Positions 19,512 through 44,059 of a stretch of 64,000 nucleotides of DNA are shown piece after piece. The first letter of the stretch is position 1. The number at the start of each line of letters is the position of its first letter. Source of the stretch: an uncultured Candidatus Saccharibacteria bacterium (GTDB lineage: Bacteria; Patescibacteriota; Minisyncoccia; Minisyncoccales; GWA2-38-27); contig CAYMZK010000001.1 in the NCBI GenBank assembly GCA_964394985.1, positions 63,957 through 127,956 on the forward strand, read 5' to 3'. The position numbers and the translations under genes were made by a program. The notes under the pieces are model-generated. The model was not told where the DNA came from, did not search any database, and worked only from the letters and a program-made list of their open reading frames with translations.

Positions 19512-19844
19512 AATAAGAGTCGGCGTTTTATGATGGTTAATTTACTCCCCACCATCTTAACTAGATAGTTAAAGTCGTTACGGGGTCATTTAAGACTTCC
19601 CACGGTATTACCCATTACTTTATTATACCATAAAATAATTAGGGCTTCACCGTTATAAGCCGAATTCCTACTAGAAATCACTTTCTAGACAGGCAATTTC
19701 TTACCTGGCAAGAGATTACGCTACCTTTGGACGGTTATAGTTCATATACCGTATTTCCCTATATCGCTATAAGGCTTGGACTATATCTTCACCCACTCCC
19801 GTGATGGGAGTTAGGGGCTTGACGTGTAGTCTCTGAGGATTCTT

Positions 19845-20360
19845 CTAATAAGAGCTCAAGATTTGTTTCTTGGAGTATTTCCGTTCTCGGCCGACTAGGA
19901 TAAGATCTCTTAACTTTAAGATTTCTTCCATGCCGGTTTTTTTGAGATGTCTCTTCTTTTTAAGTATGTCTGTGATTTTACAAAAAACTTCAAACACTTT
20001 TTTCTTATTCTCTGATAACAGAGGATAATTTCTGAAAAAAGGAATGACAATTTTTATAATATCTTCCAGTTTTCTTGTTTCAAAATAACATATCCCATCC
20101 TTACGATAACGAATTGTTCCACAATTTAAGAATTTCTTAAATATTTCAGGAACCGTATCGTCTTTCTGAGAAATATTGAACGATAATGAAACCTTCCATC
20201 CATACCTATAATCATCTCTTTTGATTAGAGAGACATTAAAACTTCCTTCTCCATCCGCAAATCCACTCAAATAATAACCGAGGCTCTTACTAGCAGTCTT
20301 TCCTGCTGATTGTCCGCAATTGTACATTTTCACTGCCATAATCTTACTATTATTATACAA
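19845..20360 (-). CDS. intron-encoded LAGLIDADG homing endonuclease
   Basis: YLSGFADGEGSFNVSL motif; located inside the 23S gene. Confidence 0.8.
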   Translation of the reverse strand: MYNNSKIMAVKMYNCGQSAGKTASKSLGYYLSGFADGEGSFNVSLIKRDDYRYGWKVSLSFNISQKDDTVPEIFKKFLNCGTIRYRKDGICYFETRKLEDIIKIVIPFFRNYPLLSENKKKVFEVFCKITDILKKKRHLKKTGMEEILKLRDLILVGRERKYSKKQILSSY

Positions 20361-21822
20361 GATAACGGCGAGTAGTACAATATGCCCGGAGTTTCCAGCA
20401 TATGGTCAAGTTATTTTTTCTAAGAATTACTTCTTAGTGCGGCAACTTTCTTACCGCCGACGTTCACTGGCGCTTCGAGCAGTCAGCCCAAGTGATAAAT
20501 CACTAGGACCGCCACTGTTAACGTTCCAGCACTGGTCAGGCCTCAACCCCTATACATCTTCTTACGAATTAAGCAGGGATCTGTGTTTTTGATAAACAGT
20601 CGCCAGAGGTCTTTCGCTGCGGCCTCGCTTAAGCGAGGCAAGGCATATCCCGAAGTTACGCCTGCTGTTTTGCCGAGTTCCTTCAAGAACTTTCACTCGT
20701 TCACCTTAGTACACTAATACCAACCCACCTGTGTCGGTTTGCGGTACGGATTTCATATCCCTAACTTTTAAGAACTTTTCCAGGTAGCTTGATCACACAA
20801 GTTTGCTTCATCCGAAGAATCAGCTCAACTGCAAATCCAATAATGCACCTTGTTTCACAAACTACGTCATCCTTAAAAAAAGATATGAAAGGGCCGGAAT
20901 ATTAACCGGCTGTCCATCCCTTACTACCCTTCGGTAGCAAAGTTAGGACCGCCTAACCCTTGGCTGATTGCCATTGCCAAGGAAACCTTGGGTTTTCGGT
21001 GTGCGGGGCTTTCACCCGCATTGCGGTTACTCATGCCAACATTCTCTCTTCTTAACGCTCCACCAAACCTCACGATTTAGCTTCAGTGCATTAAGAATGC
21101 TCCCCTACCGATTATTGTAAACAATAATCCCTTATCTTCGGCATATAACTTGAGTCCCGTAAATTTTTGGCGCAAAATTCCTTAGCTAGTAAGCTGTTAC
21201 GCACTTTTTGAAAGATAGCTGCTTCTAAGCTAACTTCCTAGCTATCAATGGAGTTTCACTTCCTTCAAAACACTTAGTTATAATTTAGGGGCCTTAGATG
21301 AAGATCTGGGCTGTTTCCCTTTCGACCATGGAGCTTAGCCCCCACAGTCTAACTGTTTGTAAACATTTTCCGGCATTCGGAGTTTGATTGGAAGATCCGA
21401 GCGAAAGCCCAAGAAATTCCATTCAGTGCTCTACCTCCAGAAAACTATATACAAATGCTAGCCCTAAAGCTATTTCGGGGAGAACCAGCTATTACCAAGC
21501 TCGATTAGCTTTTCACTCCTTACCACAACTCATCCCAGAGTATTGCACGGCTCAAGGGTTCGGGCCTCCTTCTATCTTTCGATAGAGTTCACCCTGGTCA
21601 TGGCAAGCTCGCTTGGCTTCGGGTCTTAAGCATTCTCTCAATTGTTCGCGCTTTTAACACTCGCTTTCGCTACGCCTCAATCCCGGAAGGATTCAGACAA
21701 AGAAAACACTTAAACTCGTTGGCTCATTCTTCAATAGGCACGCCATCACCCCGCTAAAAGCGGAGCTCTGACTCCTTGTAAGCAAAATGGTTTCAGGTAC
21801 TATTTCACCGCCCTCACCGGGC

Positions 21823-21862
<40 letters not shown>

Positions 21863-22602
21863 AGATATCGTAGTATTTAGCCTTGGCCGATTAGTCCGGC
21901 CTGTTTCCTACAGGGTTTTCTTTCCCCATAGTACTCAAGTAAAATAACAAGGAGCACGAATAAATTTTTAAGTACAGGACTATTACCTTCTATGGTCACC
22001 CTTTCCAGGGATGTTCCTCTAACCTATTCGCCTTTTTATTCTCCCTCGGCAAACATTCTATTTCCCAAAAAGAGAAATAGAATACTCCCGACGTTATTCC
22101 CTTACAACCCCACATTAAAAAATATGGTTTGGGCTTTTCCCTTTTCGCTCGCCGCTACTTGGGGAATAAAATTATTTTTCTTTTCCTCCGCTTACTGGGA
22201 TGTTTCACTTCAGCGGGTTCGCCATCCGACATACATCGGATTAATATGGGTTTACCATATTGCGTTTACGCATTCGGAAATCTCCGGGTCAAAGGTTGCT
22301 AAACACCTCACCGAAGCTTATCGCAGTCACGCCACGTCCTTCATCGCCTTGATATCCCTAGGCATCCACCATTTGCTCTTAATAATGTTGGCTAATAATT
22401 AATAATTGTAATTGCTAGACAGTATTCAATTGACAACGTTCTTACCCATTCAGGATAAATAAAAAACCGCTTGGGGAGCGATTATTCGGACATACTATAA
22501 AATTCAGACTATATCCTACTCCCTTAGTTTTTTATATTTTATTTTCTTTATCATTGCACTATCAATCTTAACAAAACCAAGAAAGAGTGTCAATAGCAAA
22601 AA

Positions 22603-25152: not shown

Positions 25153-25929
25153 TTATTTTTGAGAATTAAGTGTTGCACTTGAAGATTGAATGCAGCGTAC
25201 CTTTAATTCTATTCCAATAGGAATCTTTTTAAATCTATTGATTGTTTTTTGCTTTGTTAGTTCAGCTGTGGCCCTTCCTAATTTATCAGCTAAGATAAAT
25301 CCTGATTTTCTCTCAACGTGAGTAAGAATATGTTGTCTATCTTTTCCTAGGATAGTATCTCCTTCCCAGTCTCCAATTCTTGCCCTTTGATTTACAATCT
25401 CTGGTCGAGTATCAATTCTTCTCTTTTTAAGCTTCTCTCGCTCTTTCTCACGTATTCTAGTGCCATATCTACGTCGATACTTACCTTTTTGACATCTCAA
25501 ATATTTAACCAGATCTTTTCTTTCATTGTAGATATATTTGTAAATAGTATCTTTCCCAATATATTTCTTTTTATGGTTTTCATTCCATTTGCCAGCTATT
25601 TGATCCGGAGACCAATATTTCTTTAATTTCCTAATAATGTATTTTCTTAAAGATTTATCATTCTCTATCTTTCTAAATCTAGCATTAGCTTCAAGTCTTT
25701 TCTCTTTAGCTAATCTTTTAGATTTACTTACATAATACTTTCCATTTATTCCTTCTCCTCGTTTACGTTCTCGCCAGAGAGTAGTCCGACTTTTTCTTAA
25801 AAGCTTAGCTATTTCTTTCTTCTTTGCTTTAGTTCTTAACAGAACAGATAGCTGATTTTTCTGTTCTGGGGTAAAATGTTTGTAGGGCATGTTGTTTATC
25901 AAGTTAGTTATTAATTCCTTAATAATCAT
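25153..25929 (-). pseudogene. IS30-family transposase, C-terminally truncated (DDE domain largely missing)
   Basis: HTH region plus RIGDWEGDTILGK, an IS30-type motif. The protein stops about 40 aa later, so most of the catalytic domain is absent. The likely true start is MIIKE at 25929. The ORF-track extension to 26154 is hydrophobic junk. Confidence 0.65.
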
Positions 25930-25983
25930 TTTACTTGAAAACACTTGCCCTTTTAAGTTACCTTGATGTTTCACTTCGGAGTA

Positions 25984-26052
25984 GAATGTACCTACAAAAG
26001 ATTGACAAATCAAGAAAAAAGATGTAAGTTTGTATATTAACAGGAAATAGTT
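25984..26052. repeat. left copy of a ~65-bp inverted repeat (partner at 29072-29133)
   Basis: acaaaagattgacaaatcaagaaaaaagatgtaagtttgtatattaacaggaaatag matches the reverse complement of 29072-29133 with about 5 mismatches. Contains TTGACA-17nt-TAAGTT reading toward the flanked genes. Confidence 0.7.
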
Positions 26053-26098
26053 TCTTATTAAAAACAGTACTTTAACAAATAAATAGGAGGTATAAGCT

Positions 26099-26368
26099 AT
26101 GCAACGATCTTCAAAAGAGATTAAAGCACGGTGTGCTTGCATCCTCAGCAGCAAGAGTATTGTTACTCTTGTGGAAGCAAGCAGTAGTCCATCGGCTGCC
26201 TATGAGATGGTTTTTGCGGAAAGCAAAGACATTTTAATGGCAAAAGCTAGCAGATGGCTTGCGGTATTGCGTCGGAATTACCCCACCGAGTATCGTAGAC
26301 TCGTTCCAGCCCAACTCGGCCACGTCAGTAATGACACGGTACAGACAGAAAAGGAGACAAGGTTATGA
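26099..26368 (+). CDS. small hypothetical protein, translationally coupled to the PheRS-like gene
   Basis: AGGAGG sits 8 nt upstream of the ATG. The stop overlaps the next start (ATGA). GC-rich like the rest of the cassette. Confidence 0.4.
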   Translation: MQRSSKEIKARCACILSSKSIVTLVEASSSPSAAYEMVFAESKDILMAKASRWLAVLRRNYPTEYRRLVPAQLGHVSNDTVQTEKETRL

Positions 26369-27480
26369 AAAAGGAAGTCATGTCAGCAGAACGTCTGGAG
26401 GCCTCATTGGCAATACCAGACCTAACCGATCCCAAGAATGGGGTCCATGCCATCAATATTGTTGTCTATAACATTATGACGGCATTGCAGAGGGCGTATC
26501 CCGGAACGGCAGTTGAAGAAGTCCGACTGAACCCCGAGGTGTCCGTCAAAGAGAACTTCGACGACCTACTCTTCCCATCAGATAATGCTGGGAGGTCGTC
26601 TCGCTACACGAGATACGTCACCGAGAACACCGTCTTGAGAACCCACACTTCTTCCGCGATTCCGGGATGGCTCAAGAAAGTATCCCAAAACAGTGTCAAG
26701 GATACAATCGTCGTTTTGCCGGGTATGTGCTATCGCCGTGATGTGGTCGACAAGACACATTGTGGTGAACCGCACCAGATGGATGTGTGGCGAATCAAAT
26801 GTGGTCAACCACACTTCACCAGAAAAGACCTGATCTCTCTGGTGGAAACAATTCTTAACTGCATTGTTCCGGGTTGTGAATACCGGGCCAACGAGGTCAA
26901 ACATCCATACACCCTGAACGGCCTCGAGGTGGAAGTTTTGATGAATAGATCATGGCTGGAGATTCTGGAGTGCGGTGAGGCTCATCCAACCGTACTCAAA
27001 AACGCCGGTCTTGATTCGGAAGAATACTCCGGGCTTGCACTGGGCATGGGGCTGGATCGTCTCGTCATGATCATCAAGGGAATTGATGATATTCGAGTTC
27101 TGAGATCGGACGATGCGCGAATTAAAAGCCAAATGACAAATCTGGAGAAGTTCACCACCGTATCCGATCAGCCTGCGACCAAAAGGGTCCTCTCATATTC
27201 CACTTCGGTTGAAAAAACCGAGGAGGATATTTGCGAAGAAATTCGCGACGAGTTAGGTCCTGACGCTGTCTTTATTGAAAAGATCAAATACTCAGAGATT
27301 CCCTATGAACAGCTATCAGAGAAGGCTCGAACCAACCTTGGCATTCATCCTGACCAGAAAAATGTGGTGGCAACACTGACATTCCGATCGCTGAAAGGAT
27401 CTCTTCCTCGAACGATGGTCAACGATTGGATGCAACGTCTCTACCCGAAGTTAAACAGAGGGAGTCGAGGCTATATGTAA
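26365..27480 (+). CDS. PheRS alpha-like class-II aaRS paralog (catalytic core plus C-terminal FDX-ACB-like domain), divergent
   Basis: LRTHTSSAIPGW as motif 1. CYRRDVVDKTHCGEPHQMDVW as motif 2, with Pro replacing the usual Phe. GLALGMGLDRLVMIIKGIDDIRVL as motif 3. C-terminal ~100 aa resembles the ferredoxin-fold anticodon-binding domain. GC content is clearly higher than the flanks. Confidence 0.6.
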   Translation: MKKEVMSAERLEASLAIPDLTDPKNGVHAINIVVYNIMTALQRAYPGTAVEEVRLNPEVSVKENFDDLLFPSDNAGRSSRYTRYVTENTVLRTHTSSAIPGWLKKVSQNSVKDTIVVLPGMCYRRDVVDKTHCGEPHQMDVWRIKCGQPHFTRKDLISLVETILNCIVPGCEYRANEVKHPYTLNGLEVEVLMNRSWLEILECGEAHPTVLKNAGLDSEEYSGLALGMGLDRLVMIIKGIDDIRVLRSDDARIKSQMTNLEKFTTVSDQPATKRVLSYSTSVEKTEEDICEEIRDELGPDAVFIEKIKYSEIPYEQLSEKARTNLGIHPDQKNVVATLTFRSLKGSLPRTMVNDWMQRLYPKLNRGSRGYM

Positions 27481-27551
27481 TTGCCTGCTTATGCGGTAAA
27501 CTACATCATGAGGTTATGGACAAAAAATGTCTGTAGCCTCTTTTTTAATAT

Positions 27552-27587: not shown

Positions 27588-29036
27588 TTAAAATACTGGG
27601 AAAAGTTCGACATCCCTTATATCCTTTGCGTTAAGCAAAAGCATAAGAAGACGTTCCATCCCCATGCCAATTCCTCTGCAAGGAGGAAGCCCAAATTTCA
27701 TCGCTTCGATGATATCTTTGTTAATATCTCTATTCTGATCATCTCTGCGATAAGATAGCTGTTCCTCCATTCGGTGTTTGATAACCCTAGGATCACGCTC
27801 CGGGTTAACTAAGTCAGCAACCAGCATTCCATTAATTACAAGCAAGGTCTCATCGATAGTTGAACCATCGTCATTGACTTTGAAAAGCGGAGATTGGGCT
27901 GCCGGCAAATTTCTTAGAAAAACAGGTCCAGTGATGTTGGACATCATATGCGCATACAGTGACGTAGTCACTGTATACTTGTTCAACTTTGCGGGATGAG
28001 TAATTCCTGCTTTGTCTAGTAGATGCACGAGTTCTTCGATAGGACGTGATTCGTCATACCGGAGACCTGTGCATTTTTCGAGCTCATCATTAAAGTCACA
28101 TGATGGCCATTCGCCAGTGCAGTCAATCGACCCTTCAGTAGTTGGAATCGATATTGAACCGTAAAGTTGGACAAGAATTTCACATATCATGTCCCGCATC
28201 AGATTCTCCATTTCTTCCCTCGTCGCATATGCTCGATACAGCTCAAGAATCGTGAACTGGGGAAGCATGTCTGCAGTTGCACCCTGATTCCTGAATGATT
28301 TGCCGATCTCAAATACTTTTGAAAAACCAGCAATAATCAGTTTTCTAAGAAACAACTCGGACGTCAACCTCAGATACATATCCTTGTCATGTTCGGTCAC
28401 GTGCGTAACAAAAGGATCAGCCAACCCTGCTTCAAAGCTTTCCTGAAGCAATGTCATACTTAGCTCCTCATAGCCGTTGCTATAGAGGAACTGACGGATC
28501 ACTCTGAAGACTGTTGAACATTTGCGAAAGTGCAGAATCTTTTCTCGGTCTCGGATCATTTGAAGATGTCGATGAGCATACAAATTTGACCTCTTACAGA
28601 AATCGATATTGCTGTCATAGACATCTCCTGTTGCTTTGGAAAGTAACAAGACTTTCTCGCCAAGAAAAACATCGCCATTGGCTGTGCCAATCTTCACACC
28701 GTTCAACACCACGATGTCTCCATAATGAATCATGAAGTTTACCATGTTAATGTTTTTGGGTGTTCGAACAAGAAATGCCGGGATGGATGAACCGTTTCCT
28801 TCAATCCTTTCGAAATTGATGACTTCTTTGTCATACAGCTTGCTGAATACTCCGAGTTTGGAGATTTTACCAGTATTATCGGAAAGCATCAACCTCCCGA
28901 CAAGTGTAGCTCTTTCACCATTCCGAAGATTACCAAATGCATCGACTTCGATTGATCCCCTTGGTGCCTCGCGGCGATACGCAAAAGAATCATTTTCGAG
29001 GGCAAAAACCCTCTTTCTCTCGCTTTTTTTGGCCAT
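27588..29036 (-). CDS. class-II lysyl-tRNA synthetase-like protein with divergent active-site residues
   Basis: N-terminal OB-fold-like segment. The segment DMYLRLTSELFLRKLIIAGFSKVFEIGKSFRNQGATADMLPQFTILELYRAY aligns to LysS motifs 1/2; GLPPCRGIGMGMERLLMLLL..IRDVELFP aligns to motif 3. Several normally invariant residues are substituted. GGAGGTG SD. GC-rich. Confidence 0.7.
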   Translation of the reverse strand: MAKKSERKRVFALENDSFAYRREAPRGSIEVDAFGNLRNGERATLVGRLMLSDNTGKISKLGVFSKLYDKEVINFERIEGNGSSIPAFLVRTPKNINMVNFMIHYGDIVVLNGVKIGTANGDVFLGEKVLLLSKATGDVYDSNIDFCKRSNLYAHRHLQMIRDREKILHFRKCSTVFRVIRQFLYSNGYEELSMTLLQESFEAGLADPFVTHVTEHDKDMYLRLTSELFLRKLIIAGFSKVFEIGKSFRNQGATADMLPQFTILELYRAYATREEMENLMRDMICEILVQLYGSISIPTTEGSIDCTGEWPSCDFNDELEKCTGLRYDESRPIEELVHLLDKAGITHPAKLNKYTVTTSLYAHMMSNITGPVFLRNLPAAQSPLFKVNDDGSTIDETLLVINGMLVADLVNPERDPRVIKHRMEEQLSYRRDDQNRDINKDIIEAMKFGLPPCRGIGMGMERLLMLLLNAKDIRDVELFPVF

Positions 29037-29146: not shown

Positions 29147-29686
29147 CTAATTCTTTTTAAAAATATCGTATTTAAAATCCTTGTATGTCATAGATGGACG
29201 CGGCCCAGTGCTATTTTGATATTTTCCCTCGTATAAAACTATGTCACCCAAGGGAACCCAAAAACTTACTTGGGCTATCAGCATGCCCGGGTATAACCTG
29301 ACAGGAAGAGTTGCATACAATTGGAATGTTGTAACTCCATGAGAGCCTATATCAATTAGGTCAGCGGTGACATGAACAAATAAACCCATTCTTGCCGTGC
29401 CAGATTTACCATGTATTAAGGGAACATAGAAATCACTACCTATACTCTCTCTGGAATGTCCCAACACAAAATCACCGGCATTAAGTACTAACCCATCCTC
29501 AGGAATAGTTATCTCTTCATAAGATGCTTGGCGTTTCGGATCAATTATGTCTTGTTTGTACCGAACAATTGTGTTTCCAAGTGATAAATCGTATGAATTA
29601 GTCGTTACACGGATTTTGTCAAATGGATCGATGTCAATTTTTCTTTTTTTAACTTCTACTATTATTTTTTTACCAGTGAGTATCAT
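29147..29686 (-). CDS. dCTP deaminase/dUTPase-superfamily paralog, probably catalytically degenerate
   Basis: Same fold signature as the upstream paralog (GMLIAQVSFW; HGKSGTARMGLFVHVTADLID). The conserved Arg/Ser of GRSS and the Glu of LEF are replaced (GKSGTAR; FQLYA). Confidence 0.55.
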   Translation of the reverse strand: MILTGKKIIVEVKKRKIDIDPFDKIRVTTNSYDLSLGNTIVRYKQDIIDPKRQASYEEITIPEDGLVLNAGDFVLGHSRESIGSDFYVPLIHGKSGTARMGLFVHVTADLIDIGSHGVTTFQLYATLPVRLYPGMLIAQVSFWVPLGDIVLYEGKYQNSTGPRPSMTYKDFKYDIFKKN

Positions 29687-30201
29687 ATACTTTGGTGTTT
29701 GATTAACGGTACGTAAGATTCTTGTGGGTGATTGAGATGTCCATATCTTCCGTCATATTTTCTCACTGTTCCAAAATTCTTCCAGAAAGATACCTGCCCA
29801 ATGATCATTCCTGGGTATAATTTAATTGGTATTGCGGCAACAATTTCCAATGTCCATTTATGCTCGGAAGTCGTATGACCAAGATTGGCTGATGCCTGCA
29901 AAAATAAACCGTATCTACCCATAGAGCTTCTTCCGATTAGAGACATAGCATATTTTGAACTGCCAATCACTTCTTTGGTGGTAGCCAGGTACATTTTTCT
30001 TGGTTCCAAAACATACCCATCTTCGGGCATTTTTACTTCCTTAAATAGAGCTTTTTTACCATCAAACCCATTAAAGACCTTAATAGTTGAATCGAGTCGG
30101 TAATTGTAACTATTTGGATTAACCTGATTTTGGGAAAACGGCTCAATAACAATATTTCTAGAATTAATCTCTTCTTTGATTTTACTTCCGGTTAAAATCA
30201 T
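29683..30201 (-). CDS. dCTP deaminase (Dcd) family protein
   Basis: MILTGSKIKEE...IEPF N-terminus. GRSSMGRYGL, TLEIVAA and PGMIIGQVSFW align to the Dcd catalytic region. 4-nt overlap with the next gene. Confidence 0.65.
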   Translation of the reverse strand: MILTGSKIKEEINSRNIVIEPFSQNQVNPNSYNYRLDSTIKVFNGFDGKKALFKEVKMPEDGYVLEPRKMYLATTKEVIGSSKYAMSLIGRSSMGRYGLFLQASANLGHTTSEHKWTLEIVAAIPIKLYPGMIIGQVSFWKNFGTVRKYDGRYGHLNHPQESYVPLIKHQSI

Positions 30202-30203
30202 AA

Positions 30204-31028
30204 TTAAAATAATTCAACAAATCTGTTGGGATATACATTTTTTCTATACCTTAAAACCAAGACGCTATACATCTGATATGGACGCAGATCATTCGACATT
30301 TTTTTGACTTCATAAAGTCTGTTATACATGGTTTTATAAACATCCTTGTCTTCAATTTTTAACATCTTACATGCACGGTCTATTGTACTTTTACAGTAAT
30401 AATGAAGCTCATCCTCTGTTTCTTGAACTAGATCATTTCGCTCTTCGAATACAACCTCAAGCTTGTTGTACAATTTCATAATCTCTTTGTATGGAACGGA
30501 TGTCGGTGTAATTTCAAATACTTTTTGTGCTATCTTGATCAATGCTTCTGGCATCGGTTTTGTCACATAAAAAGGCGATGCTAAAATATAACCACCATCG
30601 GTCAGCATACTTATGCATTTTTCTAGCATTTTTACAGGATCAGGAAAGAATCCAAGTGATGCCCCAACCACTATATGAGTAAATTGTTTTTTTGTTTCGA
30701 ATTTGTAGCCGTCCGCAACTTTATAGGAAAGATTTATATTAGGAGCATATTTTTCTTTATTATAATTAGCCATTTTTACAGACTTTACCGAAAGGTCAAA
30801 ACCTTCTCCCTTACACCCTGAAAGCAATGCCAGCTCTCGCGAAGAAAAACCAGTAGTACAGGCTATTTCTAATAAATTAGATTTTTTATTCAGATCGGAA
30901 AAGCGAGCCCATTTTGAAAGAGTGACGTACGATCCAGGCAAGACATTCCATTGATTAATTAAACCGACAAAATCCGTGTAAGAAAGATTTTTGATGTAAT
31001 CTGGTGTAATCGATGATTCTTTTTTCAT
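30204..31028 (-). CDS. class I SAM-dependent methyltransferase-fold protein (MccD-like by size and context)
   Basis: Motif I LLEIACTTGFSS, acidic post-I residue (GFD), motif LTDGGYIL; 274 aa. Confidence 0.55.
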   Translation of the reverse strand: MKKESSITPDYIKNLSYTDFVGLINQWNVLPGSYVTLSKWARFSDLNKKSNLLEIACTTGFSSRELALLSGCKGEGFDLSVKSVKMANYNKEKYAPNINLSYKVADGYKFETKKQFTHIVVGASLGFFPDPVKMLEKCISMLTDGGYILASPFYVTKPMPEALIKIAQKVFEITPTSVPYKEIMKLYNKLEVVFEERNDLVQETEDELHYYCKSTIDRACKMLKIEDKDVYKTMYNRLYEVKKMSNDLRPYQMYSVLVLRYRKNVYPNRFVELF

Positions 31029-31106
31029 AATTTTATTAAATTATAATTTGTATACCGGTGGTATTGGTTGAATAAAATTCTGTGCCAGAGAATATGTGAG
31101 TGCACC

Positions 31107-32279
31107 TTAATTTGGCACAACGATAAAATCACTCTCCCTTATTTTTTTAGAGTAGCAACCATAACCCCAGATATCCCAAGTCGTGCATAGATTGCCCCAC
31201 ATATTACACCCGATTTCTTTTTTTGAAGGGTTAGATATGTTAACCAGCGGAAAGTATTCATATTCAAAACGTTGCCAGCCCACCATATTTACTCCACCAT
31301 CTAGAACCACATTGTTATCATCTTTCCTATCTGCAACTGATAAAACTACAAACATAGAATCATTACAAATAATTCTTCCTGGTTCTGAGTAATACGTGGT
31401 ATCTAAAATCGGGCTTAAATAGGTTCGAATTGCCGTGCCTATCCTTTTTGCATATGCTTCAATCTTTATAGCATTACGGACCAGATAATCATGTCCTTGT
31501 TTAGTTTTTTTTATGATGCCCTCCGATTCGTAGACTTCGAATCCTCCTCCAAAATCAATATACTTAATCTTTCTCAGATCGTCCGTTTTAATCTTATTCT
31601 TAAGATAGATACCAAGCTCTTTGATAGTATTCTCGTAAAAAGAAGCGTCCTTATTTCTCGACATATGAAAATGTATTCCGCTGAGATCGATAAAAGGATA
31701 TTTTTTGGCTCTTTCCCAGAACTTTTTTAGATTTGTTATATGAATGCCATATTTTTTCCAGTCTCCAGATAAATCCGTATGCACTCTGATTCCTGCTTTG
31801 ATCTTGTTTTTAAGATGATTGGTTAATCTACCAAGTTTATCCAACTCACTAAAACTATCCATATTGATGGTAATGACTGATGAGTATTTTAGGGCATGCT
31901 TTAAATCATCCTCTGTTTTACCAGGACTAAAATACAAGATATCCTTACATCCAGCCTCAATGGCCATATCTATCTCTCTAGGACTACCAACATCCAAACC
32001 AAGACCTTTTTCTACGACATATTTAATGATGAAAGGATGATGATTAATCTTCATGGCGTAATAAGCATTGAATGAGGGTAATTCTTTTTTGAAAGAATTT
32101 AAAAACAAGTCGGTGGAATCATTAAGAGTTTTTTCGTCAAAAACGTAGAAAGGGGTCTTATATTTATTGGTCAGATTTAAAATGCCTCTTTTATTTTTGA
32201 GGACGCAACTGACTACATGATAAAGTTTATTTTCTTTATTGGACAGTATTTTATTTGATTTTATGCCGGTATTTTTCAT
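31107..32279 (-). CDS. fold-III PLP-dependent decarboxylase (Orn/DAP/carboxynorspermidine decarboxylase family; MccE N-domain-like)
   Basis: TPFYVFDEKTL...NAYYAMKINHHPFIIKYVVEKGLGLDVGSPREIDMAIEAG matches the N-terminal TIM-barrel signature with the PLP-binding Lys in YAMK. FGGGFEV glycine-rich loop. Confidence 0.7.
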   Translation of the reverse strand: MKNTGIKSNKILSNKENKLYHVVSCVLKNKRGILNLTNKYKTPFYVFDEKTLNDSTDLFLNSFKKELPSFNAYYAMKINHHPFIIKYVVEKGLGLDVGSPREIDMAIEAGCKDILYFSPGKTEDDLKHALKYSSVITINMDSFSELDKLGRLTNHLKNKIKAGIRVHTDLSGDWKKYGIHITNLKKFWERAKKYPFIDLSGIHFHMSRNKDASFYENTIKELGIYLKNKIKTDDLRKIKYIDFGGGFEVYESEGIIKKTKQGHDYLVRNAIKIEAYAKRIGTAIRTYLSPILDTTYYSEPGRIICNDSMFVVLSVADRKDDNNVVLDGGVNMVGWQRFEYEYFPLVNISNPSKKEIGCNMWGNLCTTWDIWGYGCYSKKIRESDFIVVPN

Positions 32280-32297
32280 ATGTCGTTTAGTAGTCAG

Positions 32298-33305
32298 CTA
32301 TACTACAGCTTTTTTGAAAGTTATTCGTTTTTCTTTTGTGTTAATTTCGGCAATTCCTCCATTTGGTATAGTTATCAAAGGATCAGAATGTCCAAAATCT
32401 ACGTTATAAAACACTGGAAACTTAGCGTCAGAAAAATACTCTTTAAACATATCTTTCAGAGAATCCTCTGGCGAGAAACTGGATTGTTCGGTAAATCTCC
32501 CCACAACTAAACCTGCGATTTTATCGAACCACCCGAGCTGCTTGCATTGACAAAGAAACCTATCAATATGAGATGGCGTACTTGTTTCATCCTCTTCAAT
32601 AAAAAGGATTTTACTCGTCATATCGGGTAAATACTGAGTTCCTTGTAAAATCAATAAAGTTTGAAGGTTGCCAACAACCACCTCACCGATCGCATCCCCC
32701 TGATTAAATACCTTTATACCCTGGTTAGCTTTTTTAATGCGATGATCATTGTCTTTTCTTAAGAAATAAAGGTCGTCAGCGTATTCTTTAGATGGTTCAA
32801 TCGTTATGTCTTCTCGAGGCTCAATACACATTTTTTCAAAATAATCCCATGTGTAATCGAATGGTTCTGGTTTTGCGAAAGAAATAACCCCGGGTCCGGA
32901 GAATGTGATCAATCCCGTTTTAGTTGTAATGGCGGTTGTTAATGCTGTCACATCAGAATAACCAATAAAAATTTTTGGATTCTTCTTGATTAGTTCATAA
33001 TCTAATTGATCAAGAAGTTGATTGGTATTAAAACCACCCCAGAAAGCCATAATACATCCTATGTCATCTCTCTTTGCGAAATTATGAATATCCTCAATTC
33101 TAAAAGAGGCTGTTCCGGCTGTATGTTTTTGTGTGAGCAGTTTTACGGAACGACCTTCGACAATTGAAAATCCTTTACTTTTTAAATACTCATAACCTCT
33201 TTTAATAGTATTTTCGGGACACACGCCAGCGACAGGATCAGCCGGAGCAATAATGCCCATCGATTTATTTTTATCAAGCCTTGGAGGTAATATTTTTTTC
33301 ATCAT
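32298..33305 (-). CDS. S66 family LD-carboxypeptidase-like serine peptidase (LdcA/MccF family)
   Basis: MGIIAPADPV start, FWGGFNTNQLL, and IFIGYSDVTAL with the nucleophilic Ser in a GxSD context; 335 aa. Confidence 0.7.
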   Translation of the reverse strand: MMKKILPPRLDKNKSMGIIAPADPVAGVCPENTIKRGYEYLKSKGFSIVEGRSVKLLTQKHTAGTASFRIEDIHNFAKRDDIGCIMAFWGGFNTNQLLDQLDYELIKKNPKIFIGYSDVTALTTAITTKTGLITFSGPGVISFAKPEPFDYTWDYFEKMCIEPREDITIEPSKEYADDLYFLRKDNDHRIKKANQGIKVFNQGDAIGEVVVGNLQTLLILQGTQYLPDMTSKILFIEEDETSTPSHIDRFLCQCKQLGWFDKIAGLVVGRFTEQSSFSPEDSLKDMFKEYFSDAKFPVFYNVDFGHSDPLITIPNGGIAEINTKEKRITFKKAVV

Positions 33306-34315: not shown

Positions 34316-35458
34316 TTATCGTAAGATCGCATTTAAGTCCTTTTTTGTTTTCTCGCGGATTCTATCCTGAATTTTATTGATTTCCTCGCTAGTCAAAGTC
34401 CTTTCAAATGAACGGTACATAATCCGAAATGTATAAGATTTTTTATTTTTACCAAATTTATTTTCATCCTCATATTCGTCCAGCAACTTTACTTCTTCAA
34501 TTAAGTTGTCGGCAAAATCTCTTACAATTTCGTAATAATTGTTTATATTTATATCTTTATCGATTATAAAAGAAATATCTCTTGACGTTACAGGGTATTT
34601 ACTAACTTCTTCATACTTGCTATTGATGTCTTTAAACTGTTTGGTTATCCGCGGATCGTCCGACCATAAAATTCTTATATCAGGAATGCCCATTTTTATC
34701 ATGGCTAATCTGTCGCCAAACCCAAAGGCCCAGCCGTTGTAAATTTTTGGATCTAATCCAAAATTTTTAAGACATTGGGGGTGCACAAGACCAGCTCCAT
34801 TTACTTCCATCCATTCACCGTTAAATTTAATATCCATTTCTAGGCTTTCGGTTGTATAGGGGAATTTGTCAGGAATAAATTTCCATTCAATATCGGGACC
34901 AAAAATTCCTTTTGCTAGTTTAACCTGTACGTCTTTTAAATCTTCTTGTGTAATTGTTTTTTTTGACTTTTCACATATTAATAAACCATCAATTTGATGA
35001 AAAGCTGGGTAATGATTTCTATCAATTTCATCTTTTCTAAAAACAATCCCATAGGATAACGCTTTTATTTCTCCGTCCTTTTTTAATCTTTCTAAAACTT
35101 CTGAGTCTTTCAAATAAAAAGACCAAAAAGCTGTTGTGTGTGTACGCAAAAGATGAATATCATCTAAATAATAGGTATCTGTCTCTCGTCTAGCAGAATG
35201 GTTTTTTGGCATATTCAAAAGATCAAAACATTCCTCAATAGTTACAATTTTAGGAAAGTCAACAAGATCAAAATCTTTAAACATCGGTAGGTTTATTATT
35301 TGATCAAATAAAATTTTTACAGGAGATTTTTCTTTTTTTGTTAAGTCTGGAAGTGCTAAAAATCTCTTGATGCGCTCTGCCTTAACATCTTTTCTTTTAT
35401 TCAACTCTTCTAGCAAAAGCTTTTTATTCTTATTTTTTATTATAATTTTTCTATTCAT
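34316..35458 (-). CDS. PheRS alpha-like protein with C-terminal FDX-ACB-like domain (monomeric, mitochondrial-type architecture)
   Basis: HSARRETDTYYLDDIHLLRTHTTA as motif 1. YGIVFRKDEIDRNHYPAFHQIDGLLI as motif 2. GWAFGFGDRLAMIKMGIPDIRIL as motif 3. C-terminus YPVTSRDISFIID...KKSYTFRIMYRSFERTLTSEEINKI resembles the anticodon-binding domain found at PheT and mitochondrial PheRS C-termini. Short N-terminus without the bacterial PheS coiled coil. Confidence 0.65.
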   Translation of the reverse strand: MNRKIIIKNKNKKLLLEELNKRKDVKAERIKRFLALPDLTKKEKSPVKILFDQIINLPMFKDFDLVDFPKIVTIEECFDLLNMPKNHSARRETDTYYLDDIHLLRTHTTAFWSFYLKDSEVLERLKKDGEIKALSYGIVFRKDEIDRNHYPAFHQIDGLLICEKSKKTITQEDLKDVQVKLAKGIFGPDIEWKFIPDKFPYTTESLEMDIKFNGEWMEVNGAGLVHPQCLKNFGLDPKIYNGWAFGFGDRLAMIKMGIPDIRILWSDDPRITKQFKDINSKYEEVSKYPVTSRDISFIIDKDININNYYEIVRDFADNLIEEVKLLDEYEDENKFGKNKKSYTFRIMYRSFERTLTSEEINKIQDRIREKTKKDLNAILR

Positions 35459-35776: not shown

Positions 35777-36364
35777 TTAATTTGATTTAAATATTTCTTC
35801 TCCTTTTTTTAATTGAACCTCCAATTCAAAAACTATCTCACTCTTTAATCTTTCTTTCAAAACCTTAAATACATTTTTGTGAAACTCCATTCTTTGCTCA
35901 ATAGAAGAATTAAATTTATTGAAAGCCGACAATCCCCTTTCTTTATACGCTTCAATCATGGAATTTATATTATGTATTTTATCCGCCGCACAAACCATTA
36001 AAGATTCTTGACTGTCAGTTTTTAATCTTTCAACGTAATTATTCTTTCTATCTTTCCAAGACTCTTTTTCATCTTTATTTTCATTATTTGGATCATTTTC
36101 TTCTGAAACTCCTTTCACTATTTCTGTTATCTTCTCTCCAAAATCCCTAATCATATCTGATTCATAATAATTAGGAACATCTTCCAAGACATCGTGAAGC
36201 AAAGCACCAATAATAACATCTTCATCGTCAGTGTAATTAGACACAATCATAGCCACTGAATAAGGATGAACAATAAAAGGAACATCCCCTTCTTTTCTTT
36301 CCTGATCTTTATGTAAGACAGCAGCTTTAATTATCGCTTTTTGAATATTTTTTGTTAATTTCAT
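35777..36364 (-). CDS. HD-domain hydrolase resembling the (p)ppGpp-hydrolase domain of RelA/SpoT (small alarmone hydrolase-like)
   Basis: AAVLHKDQERKEGDVPFIVHPYSVAMIV...ALLHDVLEDV aligns with the SpoT HD domain (H...HD...D); 195 aa. Confidence 0.6.
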   Translation of the reverse strand: MKLTKNIQKAIIKAAVLHKDQERKEGDVPFIVHPYSVAMIVSNYTDDEDVIIGALLHDVLEDVPNYYESDMIRDFGEKITEIVKGVSEENDPNNENKDEKESWKDRKNNYVERLKTDSQESLMVCAADKIHNINSMIEAYKERGLSAFNKFNSSIEQRMEFHKNVFKVLKERLKSEIVFELEVQLKKGEEIFKSN

Positions 36365-36384
36365 ATATTTATTTTTTTACTTTA

Positions 36385-36675
36385 TTATTCTTTGGGTAAT
36401 TTTTCACAAGCCCTGTAAAGGCAAGAATGACTATTATCGTAAACTCTAACATCGTAAGTTCCGCCTTCAATCCATTCTTCTTGAGTTTTTGATAAAGGAT
36501 TAAAAGCCCAAAATAATCTATCCGCCATAGCAACAACAGTTTCATAACTATCATATGGGTATGGCCCTCCAGTTAGCCAGGCATACCTCCATTCTTCCCC
36601 ATAAACATCGGCAAAATGATAATTAACAAGAAACATGTCTATAATAGCTATTTTATATGTTTTTTTCTTTTTCAT
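36385..36675 (-). CDS. hypothetical small protein
   Basis: 96 aa ORF immediately downstream of the HD gene; no recognisable motif. Confidence 0.35.
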   Translation of the reverse strand: MKKKKTYKIAIIDMFLVNYHFADVYGEEWRYAWLTGGPYPYDSYETVVAMADRLFWAFNPLSKTQEEWIEGGTYDVRVYDNSHSCLYRACEKLPKE

Positions 36676-37007
36676 ATATTTAATTTATTATTTATTATTT
36701 ATAATTCGACCTTAAATAAAAAAAGTGACCAGAAGATTACACCCAAGAATTATACCTCTTGAGGGGTGAAATCTTCCAATCACTTTATGATTAGTCGCTT
36801 ATTTCATATGGTTAACCACAGATTTCCTAGTTTGCCTATCCGCCAAGGCGGAAGAAATAAACGGTTTGTCTTAATTATGCGCACAAACGAACGCTATTCA
36901 ATTATTAATTTTCTAAAAAATCTCTTCTCTATTATCTATATTTCTATTATAGCACAAAATTTCCGAAACTCCAAATCCAATAAAAAACATGAAAATTAAA
37001 CTTTTAT

Positions 37008-37066
37008 AACTGCCATGGATTTATTACCTCATCTTGTTTGGCGAAATCAGTATTAAGGAAATGTGA
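37008..37066. repeat. copy 1 of a 57-bp direct repeat (copy 2 at 39781-39838 is the 3' end of an HD gene)
   Basis: actgccatggatttattacctcatcttgtttggcgaaatcagtattaaggaaatgt is nearly identical to 39781-39838. Copy 1 is therefore a gene-end remnant. Confidence 0.7.
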
Positions 37067-37438
37067 AACATCTCTTGGATCTTTTCTCTTTCCTCAACCG
37101 TTAAATGTATATATTTCATAGCACCTTGATAATACATTATTATGTATCATTTAATCAAAGTGTTGCACTTCGGAGTAGAATGTACCTTTTCCCACTTAAC
37201 AGGTGTTCGTTATTTATATACACTGAGTATGTAGAAGAAATTCCACTAATCACGCGGTCCCGCCCTTGGCGGGATTTTCTTTTTTAATTAGGTGTTAGAC
37301 GTCCAGCGTCTAACACTTCGTCTACAATTTGGCTCGCTTAGCGAGACAAAGTATAATTCCTTGACTAGAAGTGAAGTGTCCTCTTTTTATCCGACTTTTT
37401 TTATTTGATTTTATTATACTCTCGTATTATTATAAAGA

Positions 37439-38314
37439 ATGAACCATTTTAAAGGAGAAAATTGTGGTTTGGAAGAAACAATACAAACATTAAAGAAAAA
37501 AGGTTTCAGTATTGGTATTATAATTCCTACCTATAATGAAGAGAAAACTATAAGTAAAATTATTTTTACTTTTTTATCTTCAGAATTAGTCAGCAATGTG
37601 TATATAATTGATGATGGTAGTCATGATAATACAATTATGAGAGCTAGGTCGGCCGGAGCGATAACATTTAATAGAAAAAGGGGAGGTGAGCCGAAATACA
37701 GAAAATATAATGGGAAGGGATTTGCTATTTGGGAAGCCTTGGCGCTTGCGAAGGAAGACATTCTTATTGTCTATGATGGTGACATACAAAACCCCGATAT
37801 AAATCATATAATTGAATTAACTTTCCCCTTGATAAATAATCCAAACATAATTTTAACCAAGGCAAGTTTTGACAGAAATTTATATTTACAAAATCATTCA
37901 TTAAAAAGAGAAGGAGGAAGGATAACAGAACTTCTCGTAAAACCTTTATTGGGTTTTCTATTCCCCGAATTAATACTATTTGAACAACCAACTGGAGGAA
38001 TTTACGGAATAAAGAAAGAGCGGTTGTTAGAAATTGAAATTCTTGGAGAAACGGGAGCAGATATTTCAATACTTATAAATTTATATAAGAAAAATGGTTT
38101 AAGTAGTTTATGTGAAGTATATCTTGGAGAAATAATACATAATAATAAAGACCTTAAAAACTTATCTAAAATAACATTCAAACTAATCCAATCTATATTT
38201 TTTCTATATAATAATAAAATTAGTGATTTTGAAAAATATTCATATCTTTCATTTGGTAAGAAAATGGATGTTAATTCCCCATTAATAATTCTAAAACCGA
38301 GAAATTTTAAATAA
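37439..38314 (+). CDS. GT2-like glycosyltransferase resembling glucosyl-3-phosphoglycerate synthase (GpgS-like)
   Basis: IIIPTYNEEKTI...YIIDDGSHDNT. The segment GGRITELLVKPLLGFLFPELILFEQPTGGIYGIKKERL...GADISILINL resembles the GpgS core. Confidence 0.55.
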   Translation: MNHFKGENCGLEETIQTLKKKGFSIGIIIPTYNEEKTISKIIFTFLSSELVSNVYIIDDGSHDNTIMRARSAGAITFNRKRGGEPKYRKYNGKGFAIWEALALAKEDILIVYDGDIQNPDINHIIELTFPLINNPNIILTKASFDRNLYLQNHSLKREGGRITELLVKPLLGFLFPELILFEQPTGGIYGIKKERLLEIEILGETGADISILINLYKKNGLSSLCEVYLGEIIHNNKDLKNLSKITFKLIQSIFFLYNNKISDFEKYSYLSFGKKMDVNSPLIILKPRNFK

Positions 38315-38321
38315 TTAAAAT

Positions 38322-38744
38322 ATGTATAAACACACTGATGTCTCTAAAATAATAATTTACAATAACAGCAAGGAGTTTTTATTACAATTAAGGGATAATA
38401 ATCCGAACATTGAATTCCCCCTTCATTGGAATCTTTTGGGTGGTGTTATTGAGGAAAATGAAGATCCAAAAAAAACTATTGTCAGAGAATTAAAAGAAGA
38501 ATTAGGAATCAAGGTTGAAAATATTAATTTATTTAAAGTATATGAAAGTAATGGTATAAAACAATATATTTATTTTTTAAATATGGAATTAGATCCTAAT
38601 AAGATTGATTTAAAAGAAGGGCTATCATTAAAATGGTTTAATGTTTTAGAAATAGACGGTCTAAAAATAGGATTTAATTACTATCAGATATTAAAGGAGT
38701 TTCAGAATGATAACGGGAATAATTTTAGCGGCAGGTCAGAGTAA
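38322..38744 (+). CDS. NUDIX hydrolase
   Basis: Nudix box GGVIEENEDPKKTIVRELKEELGI; 140 aa. Confidence 0.7.
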   Translation: MYKHTDVSKIIIYNNSKEFLLQLRDNNPNIEFPLHWNLLGGVIEENEDPKKTIVRELKEELGIKVENINLFKVYESNGIKQYIYFLNMELDPNKIDLKEGLSLKWFNVLEIDGLKIGFNYYQILKEFQNDNGNNFSGRSE

Positions 38745-39396
38745 AAGATATGATTCAAAAAATAAGCATGGCAAGTGTTTCACCAGAATCAATGAAAGGC
38801 TTCTTATTAATTACCCTGTTTGCACATTAAAAAATATCGGCATTAGTCCTATAATAATTGGTGTCAATGCTAAAAGCGAATCGATTGCAAAGTCTGTTTT
38901 TCGCGGACTAAAGAATGTTGAAATAAGGATTAGCTCATCAAAAGGAACAGCTGGGTGTTTAAGGGATGTTCTCTCTCCAGAGATAACTAGAGGTATAGTT
39001 CTTTACGGTGACACTGTATACCTAGATTCTATTGCAGAGTTCGGAAAAACACTATCAATGATAAAAAGAGGTTGGGCAGTTATTGGTGTTCAACAAACCA
39101 ATAATCTTCAAAAATATATGGCTATAGTACAGACCGGTAAAGGATATGATCCAATAATAAAACCCCACTATTTAAAAAAGGGGCTGGCCTATATAGGATT
39201 ATTCGGCTTCAATGATCCTTTAATCTTAAACAAAATTTCTAATTTGATTTCCTCAAAAAGAAACGAATTGGAATTAACAGATCTGATTAAAAAATACGCA
39301 GAGTTAAACAGATTAAGACTAGGGTTTTATCGCTCTAAGTTTATAGATTGCAATACCAAAGAAAGAATTTCAGAACTTAAAGATCTTTTAAAATAG
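38707..39396 (+). CDS. nucleotidyltransferase (MobA-like NTP-transferase fold)
   Basis: N-terminal GIILAAGQSKR signature of sugar/cofactor nucleotidyltransferases; overlaps the NUDIX gene. Confidence 0.55.
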   Translation: MITGIILAAGQSKRYDSKNKHGKCFTRINERLLINYPVCTLKNIGISPIIIGVNAKSESIAKSVFRGLKNVEIRISSSKGTAGCLRDVLSPEITRGIVLYGDTVYLDSIAEFGKTLSMIKRGWAVIGVQQTNNLQKYMAIVQTGKGYDPIIKPHYLKKGLAYIGLFGFNDPLILNKISNLISSKRNELELTDLIKKYAELNRLRLGFYRSKFIDCNTKERISELKDLLK

Positions 39397-44058: not shown

Positions 44059-44059
44059 A

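Follow-up and report, generated by a model that had tools for sequence, protein, structure and literature searches.

Which pathway is encoded by an operon that joins an S66 peptidase, a pyridoxal phosphate (PLP)-dependent decarboxylase, a transferase dependent on S-adenosylmethionine (SAM) and two proteins of the dCTP deaminase (Dcd) fold, and that lies next to divergent paralogues of aminoacyl-tRNA synthetases (aaRS)? The operon occupies positions 29147-33305 in a stretch of 64,000 nucleotides (the window) from an uncultured Candidatus Saccharibacteria bacterium (assembly GCA_964394985.1, contig CAYMZK010000001.1). A preliminary description of this DNA had proposed that it encodes the tailoring of, and the immunity to, a microcin-C-like aminoacyl-nucleotide. 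On balance we favour, with modest confidence, a mobile cassette of seven genes (the operon and two adjoining aaRS-like genes) for the biosynthesis of, and immunity to, an aminoacylated, SAM-alkylated pyrimidine nucleotide, made independently of the ThiF-like enzyme MccB. By analogy with microcin C, agrocin 84 and ascamycin, the product would be a mimic of an aminoacyl-adenylate, and its activity is predicted from the same analogy. On this reading, the most economical one, the cassette would be of their functional class and have a new composition: no MccB, ligases or transferases derived from aaRS, an MccD-like alkyl transferase (joined in the clade of the window by a decarboxylase), a split pair of Dcd proteins, and an S66 peptidase. 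We searched the literature on SrmL, on MccD and MccE in Patescibacteria, on dCTP deaminases with MccF or with nucleoside antibiotics, and on clusters with aaRS in the candidate phyla radiation (CPR), and found no description of the cassette.

The operon proteins and the adjoining synthetase-like genes

The five open reading frames (ORFs) of the operon, all on the minus strand, have the boundaries and folds initially assigned to them, as Pfam and NCBIfam agree. In the order of transcription, they encode an S66 serine peptidase of 335 residues resembling MccF and AgnC5 (32298-33305, Pfam Peptidase_S66 and S66C), a fold-III PLP-dependent decarboxylase of 390 residues (31107-32279, Pfam Orn_Arg_deC_N, 4e-30), a class I SAM-dependent transferase of 274 residues resembling MccD and AgnB1 (30204-31028), and two Dcd-fold proteins, DcdA (29683-30201, 172 residues, Pfam DCD, 4e-29) and DcdB (29147-29686, 179 residues, Pfam DCD, 1e-33). 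Overlaps of 4 nt had been reported for the operon, and this is the case only of DcdA and DcdB; the other junctions are gaps of 18 nt (S66 to PLP enzyme), 78 nt (PLP enzyme to MccD-like) and 2 nt (MccD-like to DcdA). The proximity of aaRS paralogues was correctly noted. A paralogue of lysyl-tRNA synthetase (LysRS) follows on the same strand, 110 nt downstream of the operon (27588-29036), and the gene of SrmL is convergent with it (26365-27480, plus strand). A protein resembling phenylalanyl-tRNA synthetase (PheRS) is encoded about 1 kb upstream of the operon (34316-35458, minus strand).

The methyltransferase-fold protein is by all comparisons a true relative of MccD, and the similarity that strongly confirms this is both specific and full-length. 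Its best match in PDB was 5fcd, annotated as “MccD” (E=7.7e-30, residues 4-259), with a runner-up at only 6e-4, and its C-terminal helical region is of the MccD type. It is 29% identical to the MccD of the plasmid-borne mcc operon of Escherichia coli (264 residues, E=3e-35) and 25% identical to AgnB1 of the agrocin 84 cluster (261 residues, E=5e-23). We regard it as a candidate 3-amino-3-carboxypropyl transferase.

The S66 peptidase groups by its sequence with MccF and AgnC5 and not with the murein carboxypeptidase LdcA, to which an alternative assignment had been envisaged in the preliminary description. The best PDB matches were the MccF-like proteins BA_5613 (4e-62) and Lmo1638 (7e-59), and MccF itself scored around 1e-43 to 1e-45. 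The chains of LdcA type gave values of 1e-14 to 7e-28, and so trail the MccF types by 15 to 45 orders of magnitude, and the score for the NCBIfam LdcA model (PRK11253) was 125 bits, well below the cut-off of 378. The protein is 32% identical to E. coli MccF (BLASTP E=2e-46) and 31% identical to AgnC5 (E=7e-46). When aligned to the catalytic residues of MccF (S118, E243 and H311), its Ser/Glu/His triad is intact. The recognition sites of MccF are changed: R246 to Glu (as in AgnC5), K247 to Thr, N220 to Gln and W186 to Leu. An acidic residue at the position of R246 is common to AgnC5 and to almost all S66 proteins of related cassettes. We considered this pocket as a possible readout of amino-acid specificity, and discarded it: the residues at the R246 and K247 positions do not track whether the ligase is of LysRS-like or of AlaRS-like type. 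The S66 protein is a candidate hydrolase for self-immunity or for maturation.

The PLP enzyme has the expected motifs (K77, DFGGGF, EPGR and CxxxD), and a firm grouping with the decarboxylases of diaminopimelate (DAP) or carboxynorspermidine was not found. It scored 127.7 bits with the lysA model (cut-off 297.9) and 42.8 bits with the nspC model (cut-off 409). The N-terminal domain of E. coli MccE is itself below such thresholds (FslC 111.8 bits, lysA 103.6 bits). The identity between the PLP enzyme and this domain is only 24% over 199 residues, and the two seem analogous rather than demonstrably orthologous. The former is a candidate decarboxylase for the conversion of a 3-amino-3-carboxypropyl group to an aminopropyl group. 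Of the MccD/MccE/MccF-like trio initially proposed, the MccD and MccF members stand, and the third is a putative counterpart of MccE.

The LysRS-like protein has a class II core (Pfam tRNA-synt_2) and scored 264 bits with the LysRS model PRK00484, short of the cut-off of 468. In the numbering of the Bacillus stearothermophilus LysRS, the changed residues are E255 (to Gln), H261 (to Met), N262 (to Leu), E404 (to Leu), E411 (to Leu) and E418 (to Pro). All nine orthologues have the same changes at E255, E404 and N414, and at the other sites they are also non-canonical, with minor variation. The arginines of motifs 2 and 3 and the residues holding the alpha-amino group are kept. Members of this family are 51-92% identical to each other and 27-33% identical to true LysRS, with one outlier at 41%; NCBI names the protein “amino acid--tRNA ligase-related protein”. 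The AlphaFold2 model (mean pLDDT confidence score of 75) starts with an oligonucleotide-binding (OB) barrel at the N-terminus and could be aligned with full-length structures of LysRS. Identity to AgnA of the agrocin 84 cluster, also a tRNA-synt_2 protein, is 22% (E=3.5e-10), and the window shows the pairing of agn type, i.e., a LysRS-like and an MccD-like gene in the same operon region. The gene is kept downstream of DcdB in loci L003, L009, L011, L012, L015, L018, L020 and L021. These features make the protein a candidate aminoacyl transferase devoid of the canonical residues for ATP, Mg and lysine.

SrmL, the “PheS-related mystery ligase” of NCBIfam, was matched by its own model, NF051887, with 400 bits (cut-off 300), and keeps motif 2 (YRRD) and motif 3 (GMGLDRL). 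Its AlphaFold2 model (pLDDT 86) was best aligned to the full-length human mitochondrial PheRS, including the C-terminal domain of FDX-ACB type (template modelling score 0.68-0.74). The convergent arrangement with the LysRS-like gene is found in the same relatives, and in the window two facing terminator-like hairpins with stems of 13 bp lie between the two genes (27510-27540 on the plus strand and 27584-27555 on the minus strand). Within the cassette, SrmL is a candidate for activating an amino acid or charging a tRNA. No aaRS of the window cassette passes an aaRS equivalog cut-off, and SrmL passes only its own model. The single-chain PheRS-like protein upstream of the operon (380 residues, Pfam tRNA-synt_2d and FDX-ACB) is about 33% identical to SrmL and scored 236.9 bits with the pheS_mito model (TIGR00469, cut-off 258). 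In relatives it does not accompany the cassette. It may be the housekeeping PheRS of this lineage, or else a copy that confers resistance on the cassette or acts as its supplier. Its single-chain architecture is of the mitochondrial type, here in a bacterium.

A split pair of Dcd-fold proteins

The two Dcd-fold genes had been taken for tandem dCTP deaminase paralogues. The fold was confirmed, and the residues tell a different story about function. We aligned 39 DcdA and 43 DcdB from related loci, using the Dcd:Dut of Mycobacterium tuberculosis as numbering reference. DcdA keeps S102, R106, A115 and Glu129, and has H112 replaced by Gln, D119 by His or Gln, and D33 by Asn in 38-39 of the 39 sequences. 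DcdB keeps S102, R106, H112, D119 and Y171 in all 43 sequences, T114, A115 and K170 in 42 of them, and the K170-Y171-Q172 lid. Glu129 is replaced in DcdB, by Gln in 33 sequences (including that of the window) and by Met in ten. The residue set of dCTP deaminases, i.e., the catalytic Glu (E129 in M. tuberculosis, E138 in E. coli) and the Ser/Arg/Asp core, is therefore complete in neither DcdA nor DcdB. With the TIGR02274 profile (cut-off 92.8), DcdA scored 74.5 bits and DcdB 98.8 bits. Since DcdB passes this cut-off and has Glu129 replaced, the Dcd member above the threshold is the one expected to be unable to deaminate. Judging from these residues, DcdA and DcdB are a complementary split pair throughout the family and not ordinary paralogous deaminases. 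In the Burkholderia and Roseateles loci the Dcd protein is of DcdB type only.

The MccD-like, DcdA and DcdB genes are almost always contiguous and translationally coupled, in an arrangement far beyond chance. The gap between the MccD-like gene and DcdA ranges from -44 to +9 nt in 35 of the 39 loci with the three genes on the same strand, and in 21 of the 39 same-strand loci the overlap of DcdA with DcdB is exactly 4 nt. Taken together, the Dcd data fit a hetero-oligomeric module that would handle a nucleotide and pass it as substrate to the transferase.

An exhaustive search with DcdB revealed Dcd domains of the Gln type in other contexts: fusions to PPDK_N and PEP-utilizer domains (around 820 residues; P0365, P0372, P0378, P0381, P0390 and P0398), a fusion to a methyltransferase (P0376), and single chains with three divergent Dcd domains (P0369, P0374 and P0413). 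In one locus (L061, 1-4691) the gene of the PPDK-Dcd fusion lies between a second Dcd gene, upstream of it, and a gene for a glycosyltransferase of family GT2, downstream. The PPDK-Dcd fusions are a separate, undescribed Dcd-pair system. Both the fusions and the triple-Dcd chains speak for a hetero-oligomer in partnership with transferases. We also considered the Dcd-methyltransferase fusion as a “Rosetta stone” link to the cassette. Its methyltransferase half is not MccD-like, and it supports only a general partnership of Dcd proteins with transferases.

Distribution, variation and surroundings of the cassette

We found 523 homologues of the MccD-like protein at E≤1e-5, of which the top 120 are 65-94% identical to it; those with a name are from CPR bacteria, and the closest named relatives are from Moranbacteria, Uhrbacteria, WWE3 and other Patescibacteria. 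A scan of the GTDB species representatives gave 51 loci. Those of Patescibacteria include Saccharibacteria, Uhrbacteria, Magasanikbacteria, Dojkabacteria and Paceibacterota, and those of DPANN archaea are from Woesearchaeota, Nanoarchaeota and Nanobdellota. The remaining loci are those of Paenibacillus baekrokdamisoli, Burkholderia lata, Roseateles, Aquimonas and several proteobacterial metagenome-assembled genomes (MAGs). The analysis of gene content was restricted to the 28 loci flanked by 4 kb or more on either side, by mapping ORFs within 8 kb against reference proteins. DcdB and an aaRS-like gene of any type were each present in 27 of these loci, which contradicts the idea, raised with the preliminary description, that the operon might be conserved without aaRS paralogues. 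DcdA and the S66 peptidase were each found in 21 loci, the PLP decarboxylase in 12, and a BLAST-detectable MccB in none. MccB had not been visible in the window either, and we found no tblastn match to the E. coli protein across the 64 kb.

The ligase module differs between relatives. The clade of the window has the LysRS-like protein and SrmL, and most others have a protein of 345-440 residues resembling the catalytic part of alanyl-tRNA synthetase (AlaRS), in some cases two. For example, a Moranbacteria locus (L007) encodes a near-canonical AlaRS fragment (436.5 bits for a cut-off of 457) together with a divergent one (175 bits). Canonical aaRS are linked to some cassettes: leucyl-tRNA synthetase (LeuRS) in five loci, the seryl enzyme (SerRS) in five, a short AlaRS in Paenibacillus, and the tryptophanyl enzyme (TrpRS). 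All of these pass the equivalog cut-offs, as does AgnB2 of the agrocin 84 cluster. This variation suggests that the ligases are swapped to install different amino-acid warheads, and that the linked LeuRS, SerRS, AlaRS and TrpRS are resistant or tRNA-charging copies. Other genes varying between loci encode radical SAM proteins, a carbamoyltransferase, an extra methyltransferase, ATP-grasp and Fic proteins.

In free-living bacteria the module is found in settings typical of antibiotic clusters. The Roseateles locus (L046, NZ_OZ253537.1, 1213-17388) encodes a two-module non-ribosomal peptide synthetase (NRPS) of 2116 residues (C-A-T-C-A-T), a protein of 770 residues, the MccD-like protein, a LeuRS of 982 residues, a DcdB with an N-terminal extension (293 residues) and an extended PLP decarboxylase (669 residues). 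It is a candidate “Trojan horse”, where a free-living bacterium would put the same chemistry on a peptide carrier. The Burkholderia locus encodes DcdB, the MccD-like protein, a transporter of the major facilitator superfamily (MFS) and a LeuRS.

Horizontal mobility is the best reading of three observations: the patchy spread across domains, an adjacent transposase, and a deviant G+C content at third codon positions (GC3). The transposase, of the IS30 family (25153-26154, minus strand, NF033563, 114.8 bits for a cut-off of 80), flanks the cassette on the side of SrmL. GC3 is 0.54 in SrmL, 0.435 in the LysRS-like gene and 0.30-0.33 in the five operon genes, for values of around 0.20-0.28 in most neighbours and a G+C content of 0.35 for the whole window.

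On the other side of the cassette, the 1-kb gap upstream of the S66 gene contains only a small membrane-anchored ORF and hairpins. No MccA-like precursor was found among the small ORFs of this gap, the sole region listed, where genes of seven codons are not reliably callable. With tblastn we detected no genes resembling MccC, LeuRS, SerRS or AlaRS in the window, and a scan of the window with Rfam at gathering thresholds gave no riboswitch or T-box near the operon. Further upstream, 2.5-6 kb from the operon (35777-39396), lie genes for an HD-domain protein resembling the RelA/SpoT hydrolase, a GpgS-like glycosyltransferase of family GT2, a Nudix hydrolase and a sugar-1-phosphate nucleotidyltransferase; the agrocin 84 cluster likewise has two Nudix genes. 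The region 41383-46750 (minus strand) encodes a restriction-endonuclease-like protein of the BPTD_3080 family (891 residues) adjoining an adenine-specific DNA methyltransferase (716 residues), and a ResIII/RE_endonuc gene is found near the cassette of the Moranbacteria relative L007.

The rest of the window has its own peculiarities. By its G+C content, its 23S rRNA gene and its closest protein relatives, it resembles a genome of CPR/Patescibacteria, and exact matches to its sequence were limited to Logan contigs of 3-4 kb from SRR7048227. The 23S rRNA gene (18026-22387, minus strand) is 4362 nt long, for a model of 2925 nt. It contains a group I intron at 18199-18483 (58.5 bits, above the family threshold) and two sub-threshold matches to such introns (19757-19991 and 19024-19138). 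The ORF at 19845-20360 encodes a LAGLIDADG homing endonuclease (PDB 4lq0, 1.8e-37), and that at 19047-19511 probably another. There is a 5S rRNA gene (16604-16711, minus strand), and no 16S rRNA or tRNA gene in the 64 kb. Two very large ORFs on the minus strand (8923-12549 and 2740-6441, encoding 1208 and 1233 residues) have no NCBIfam assignment except for one weak sub-threshold match.

Proposed route, alternatives and known systems

How would the seven proteins work together? The pair DcdA/DcdB, probably a hetero-oligomer, would bind a cytosine or uracil (deoxy)nucleoside triphosphate. DcdA would be able to deaminate it, which DcdB presumably cannot. DcdB keeps the Asp of dUTPase type and the residues of the triphosphate lid, and may therefore hydrolyse or transfer at the alpha-phosphate, or do no more than hold the nucleotide. 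SrmL, with its intact class II ATP motifs and a domain of anticodon-binding type, could activate an amino acid or charge a tRNA. The LysRS-like protein might then aminoacylate an amine of the nucleotide scaffold by transfer, in the manner of AcmF of the ascamycin pathway. The MccD-like protein would move the 3-amino-3-carboxypropyl group from SAM, as MccD does, and the PLP enzyme would decarboxylate it to aminopropyl, as does the N-terminal domain of MccE. Finally, the S66 peptidase could cut the amide bond of the aminoacyl-nucleotide, either for the protection of the producer or for the maturation of a prodrug. What the data show are the homologies, the states of the active sites, the conserved linkage and the contexts of the clusters; we infer the substrates, the order of these steps and the dependence on tRNA, as well as the inhibition of an aaRS by the product and the role of the linked canonical aaRS as resistant enzymes or suppliers.

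Several points weigh against this proposal. Every chemical step, like the product, its activity and its target, is predicted from homology and gene context. For the MccD-like protein, the choice between aminocarboxypropyl and methyl transfer is not readable from the sequence. AgnB1 is its relative, and the role of AgnB1 in agrocin 84 is described as unknown, in a product that has no aminopropyl group (PMC8323819). In addition to its low identity to MccE, the PLP decarboxylase does not occur in over half of the relatives, and aminopropylation can therefore not be universal. An exporter, a precursor peptide and a clearly redundant canonical aaRS are all absent from the cassette of the window. 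The lack of MccB in related loci comes from a single BLASTP query at E≤1e-6, which remote relatives of ThiF may escape. A full-text search found no literature combining the Dcd fold with natural-product pathways. Some taxon labels of MAGs on short contigs are probably binning errors. Lastly, a function intrinsic to the cell could instead explain why conservation is so high among named CPR lineages and why the cassette is prevalent in reduced genomes.

Such an intrinsic function is the core of the first competing explanation, in which ultrasmall symbionts modify RNA or nucleotides: the MccD-like protein would attach an aminocarboxypropyl or methyl group to a tRNA, an rRNA or a nucleotide cofactor, with the aaRS-like proteins as binders of tRNA and the Dcd pair tuning the pyrimidine pool. 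The domains of anticodon-binding type retained in the LysRS-like protein (OB) and in SrmL (FDX-ACB-like) are consistent with it, as are the strong conservation just mentioned, the presence in DPANN archaea, and the lack of exporter and precursor in the window. We nevertheless find it unlikely, given the signs of mobility (patchy distribution across domains, GC3, transposase), the NRPS, MFS transporter and extra LeuRS beside the module in free-living Proteobacteria, and the swapping of ligase modules between relatives; a peptidase of MccF/AgnC5 type would moreover have no role in RNA modification. The same mobility and patchiness also speak for a system of defence or conflict that depletes or poisons the nucleotide pool upon phage attack, for example by means of a Dcd pair directed at dCTP and a synthase of modified nucleotides, with the S66 and aaRS-like proteins as regulators. 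The Dcd fold, the restriction-modification-like pair at 8-13 kb in the window, the ResIII/restriction endonuclease near the Moranbacteria cassette, and the fusions of Gln-type Dcd domains to PPDK-like phosphotransferases elsewhere all go in this direction. Yet the deaminase Glu is absent from DcdB, it is proteins of antibiotic biosynthesis and immunity that the cassette specifically resembles, and the contexts with NRPS, MFS transporter and LeuRS fit secondary metabolism, which makes defence a decidedly improbable function. When we tried the cassette as an anti-phage system with PADLOC, there was no specific match for its proteins, only a generic methyltransferase match of 44.7 bits.

The island might instead serve resistance only, by detoxifying the aminoacyl-nucleotide antibiotics of neighbours through the S66 peptidase, alkylation or decarboxylation, nucleotide breakdown and aaRS-like decoys that are themselves insensitive. 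Stand-alone homologues of MccF do provide resistance to microcin C (PMC8323819), and a LysRS-like protein without catalytic residues could serve as a decoy binder. This explanation is very improbable in our opinion, since the homologues of MccD and of the N-terminal domain of MccE are biosynthetic tailoring enzymes in the known systems (PMC8323819), and both the strict coupling of MccD-like, DcdA and DcdB genes and the linkage to an NRPS in Roseateles point to synthesis. The preliminary description had also kept open an unrelated operon of polyamine metabolism and murein recycling, i.e., chance neighbours comprising a murein LD-carboxypeptidase, a decarboxylase of DAP or carboxynorspermidine, a methyltransferase and two dCTP deaminases. 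The generic names LdcA-like, LysA-like and Dcd do match the folds. This alternative is already contradicted and retains hardly any credibility: the equivalog cut-offs were missed widely, the exception being DcdB, which has no catalytic Glu; the match to MccD is specific; and the gene set is kept as a unit with aaRS-like genes in bacteria and in DPANN archaea. The latter are not known to have murein.

If the biosynthetic cassette is real, the Dcd fold would have a role not recognised before, in which two paralogues divide the catalytic residues between them. A mobile cassette made of parts of the microcin C, agrocin 84 and ascamycin type would be a concrete candidate for a small-molecule effector. 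It would also give a possible function to the “mystery ligase” SrmL, reveal the modular swapping of aaRS-derived ligases, and perhaps of targets, and may help to explain the role of AgnB1 in agrocin 84 synthesis. The cultured carriers P. baekrokdamisoli and B. lata are entry points to new nucleotide antibiotics targeting aaRS. It is conceivable, although we rather doubt it, that CPR and DPANN episymbionts, through horizontal transfer, widely share an unrecognised class of clusters for MccB-independent aaRS inhibitors of aminoacyl-pyrimidine-nucleotide type, where a Dcd hetero-oligomer would supply or activate the nucleotide, aaRS-derived transferases would attach interchangeable warheads, and MccD-like proteins would alkylate. 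In that case the Dcd fold would serve a new kind of biochemistry, and the clusters would be candidates for a chemical weapon or signal between symbiont and host.

How does the cassette compare with known systems? With microcin C (mccABCDEF of E. coli) it shares the full-length relative of MccD, the relative of MccF, and a fold-III decarboxylase adjoining the MccD-like gene, a set that recalls its aminopropylation in two steps and its immunity by S66. Unlike this system, the window has no detectable MccB, no recognisable MccA, no MccC exporter and no GNAT domain, whereas it has the aaRS-like ligases and the Dcd pair, and the specificity residues R246 and K247 of the S66 peptidase are replaced. 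The ascamycin pathway of Streptomyces has an aaRS together with a degenerate aaRS-like protein (AcmD/AcmF), plus a hydrolase, which can be compared with the SrmL/LysRS-like pair and with the AlaRS-like pair of the Moranbacteria locus. AcmF is a truncated AlaRS-like protein without the residues for ATP and alanine activation; it transfers Ala from Ala-tRNA to the sulfamoyl nitrogen of the nucleoside, a step reversed by the hydrolase AcmE (PMC12945691). The ascamycin enzymes are of AlaRS type, whereas those of the window are of LysRS and PheRS types; the hydrolase is of the alpha/beta family and not S66; and the window has no sulfamate genes. Relative to the dCTP deaminases and Dcd-Dut proteins of M. 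tuberculosis and Methanocaldococcus jannaschii, both Dcd proteins have the same fold and the Ser102/Arg106 core, and DcdB has the KYQ lid. The differences are that Glu129 is found only in DcdA, that Asp119 and His112 are found only in DcdB, and that an MccD-like gene is coupled to the pair in every case.

The agrocin 84 cluster (L060) is encoded by pAgK84 of Rhizobium rhizogenes K84, a plasmid that was matched when we searched plasmids with the MccD-like protein. There, agnA, encoding a class II tRNA-synt_2 protein reduced to its catalytic part, is directly followed by agnB1 (MccD-like) and then by agnB2 (agrocin-resistant LeuRS); agnC5 encodes an MccF-like S66 peptidase and agnC7 a radical SAM protein. 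The pathway is regarded as unresolved, with AgnA proposed to form the N-P bond, and agn-like clusters of Actinobacteria carry a methionyl-tRNA synthetase with a putative immunity function (PMC8323819). There are differences with the window: the agn cluster lacks Dcd genes and a fold-III decarboxylase, AgnA lacks the OB domain that the LysRS-like protein keeps, and the nucleotide of agrocin 84 is that of adenine, in contrast to the pyrimidine to which the Dcd pair points. A 191-residue ORF upstream of agnA was considered as a Dcd-like gene and proved to be unrelated. In the window, AgnC5 has a counterpart, and AgnC1 and AgnC7 had no tblastn match, the other agnC genes, agnD and agnE not being among the queries; radical SAM genes do occur in some cassette relatives. 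As for the similarities, both systems combine a class II aaRS-like protein, an MccD-like protein and an MccF-like S66 peptidase, without a ThiF-like MccB. The canonical aaRS linked to the agn cluster, the LeuRS AgnB2, serves immunity, and LeuRS, SerRS, AlaRS or TrpRS are likewise linked in relatives of the window cassette. The idea of microcin-C-like tailoring and immunity is supported in its outline and shifted in its reference: as far as the sequences tell, the closest known cluster is that of agrocin 84, combined with an aaRS-like logic of ascamycin type, rather than that of microcin C.

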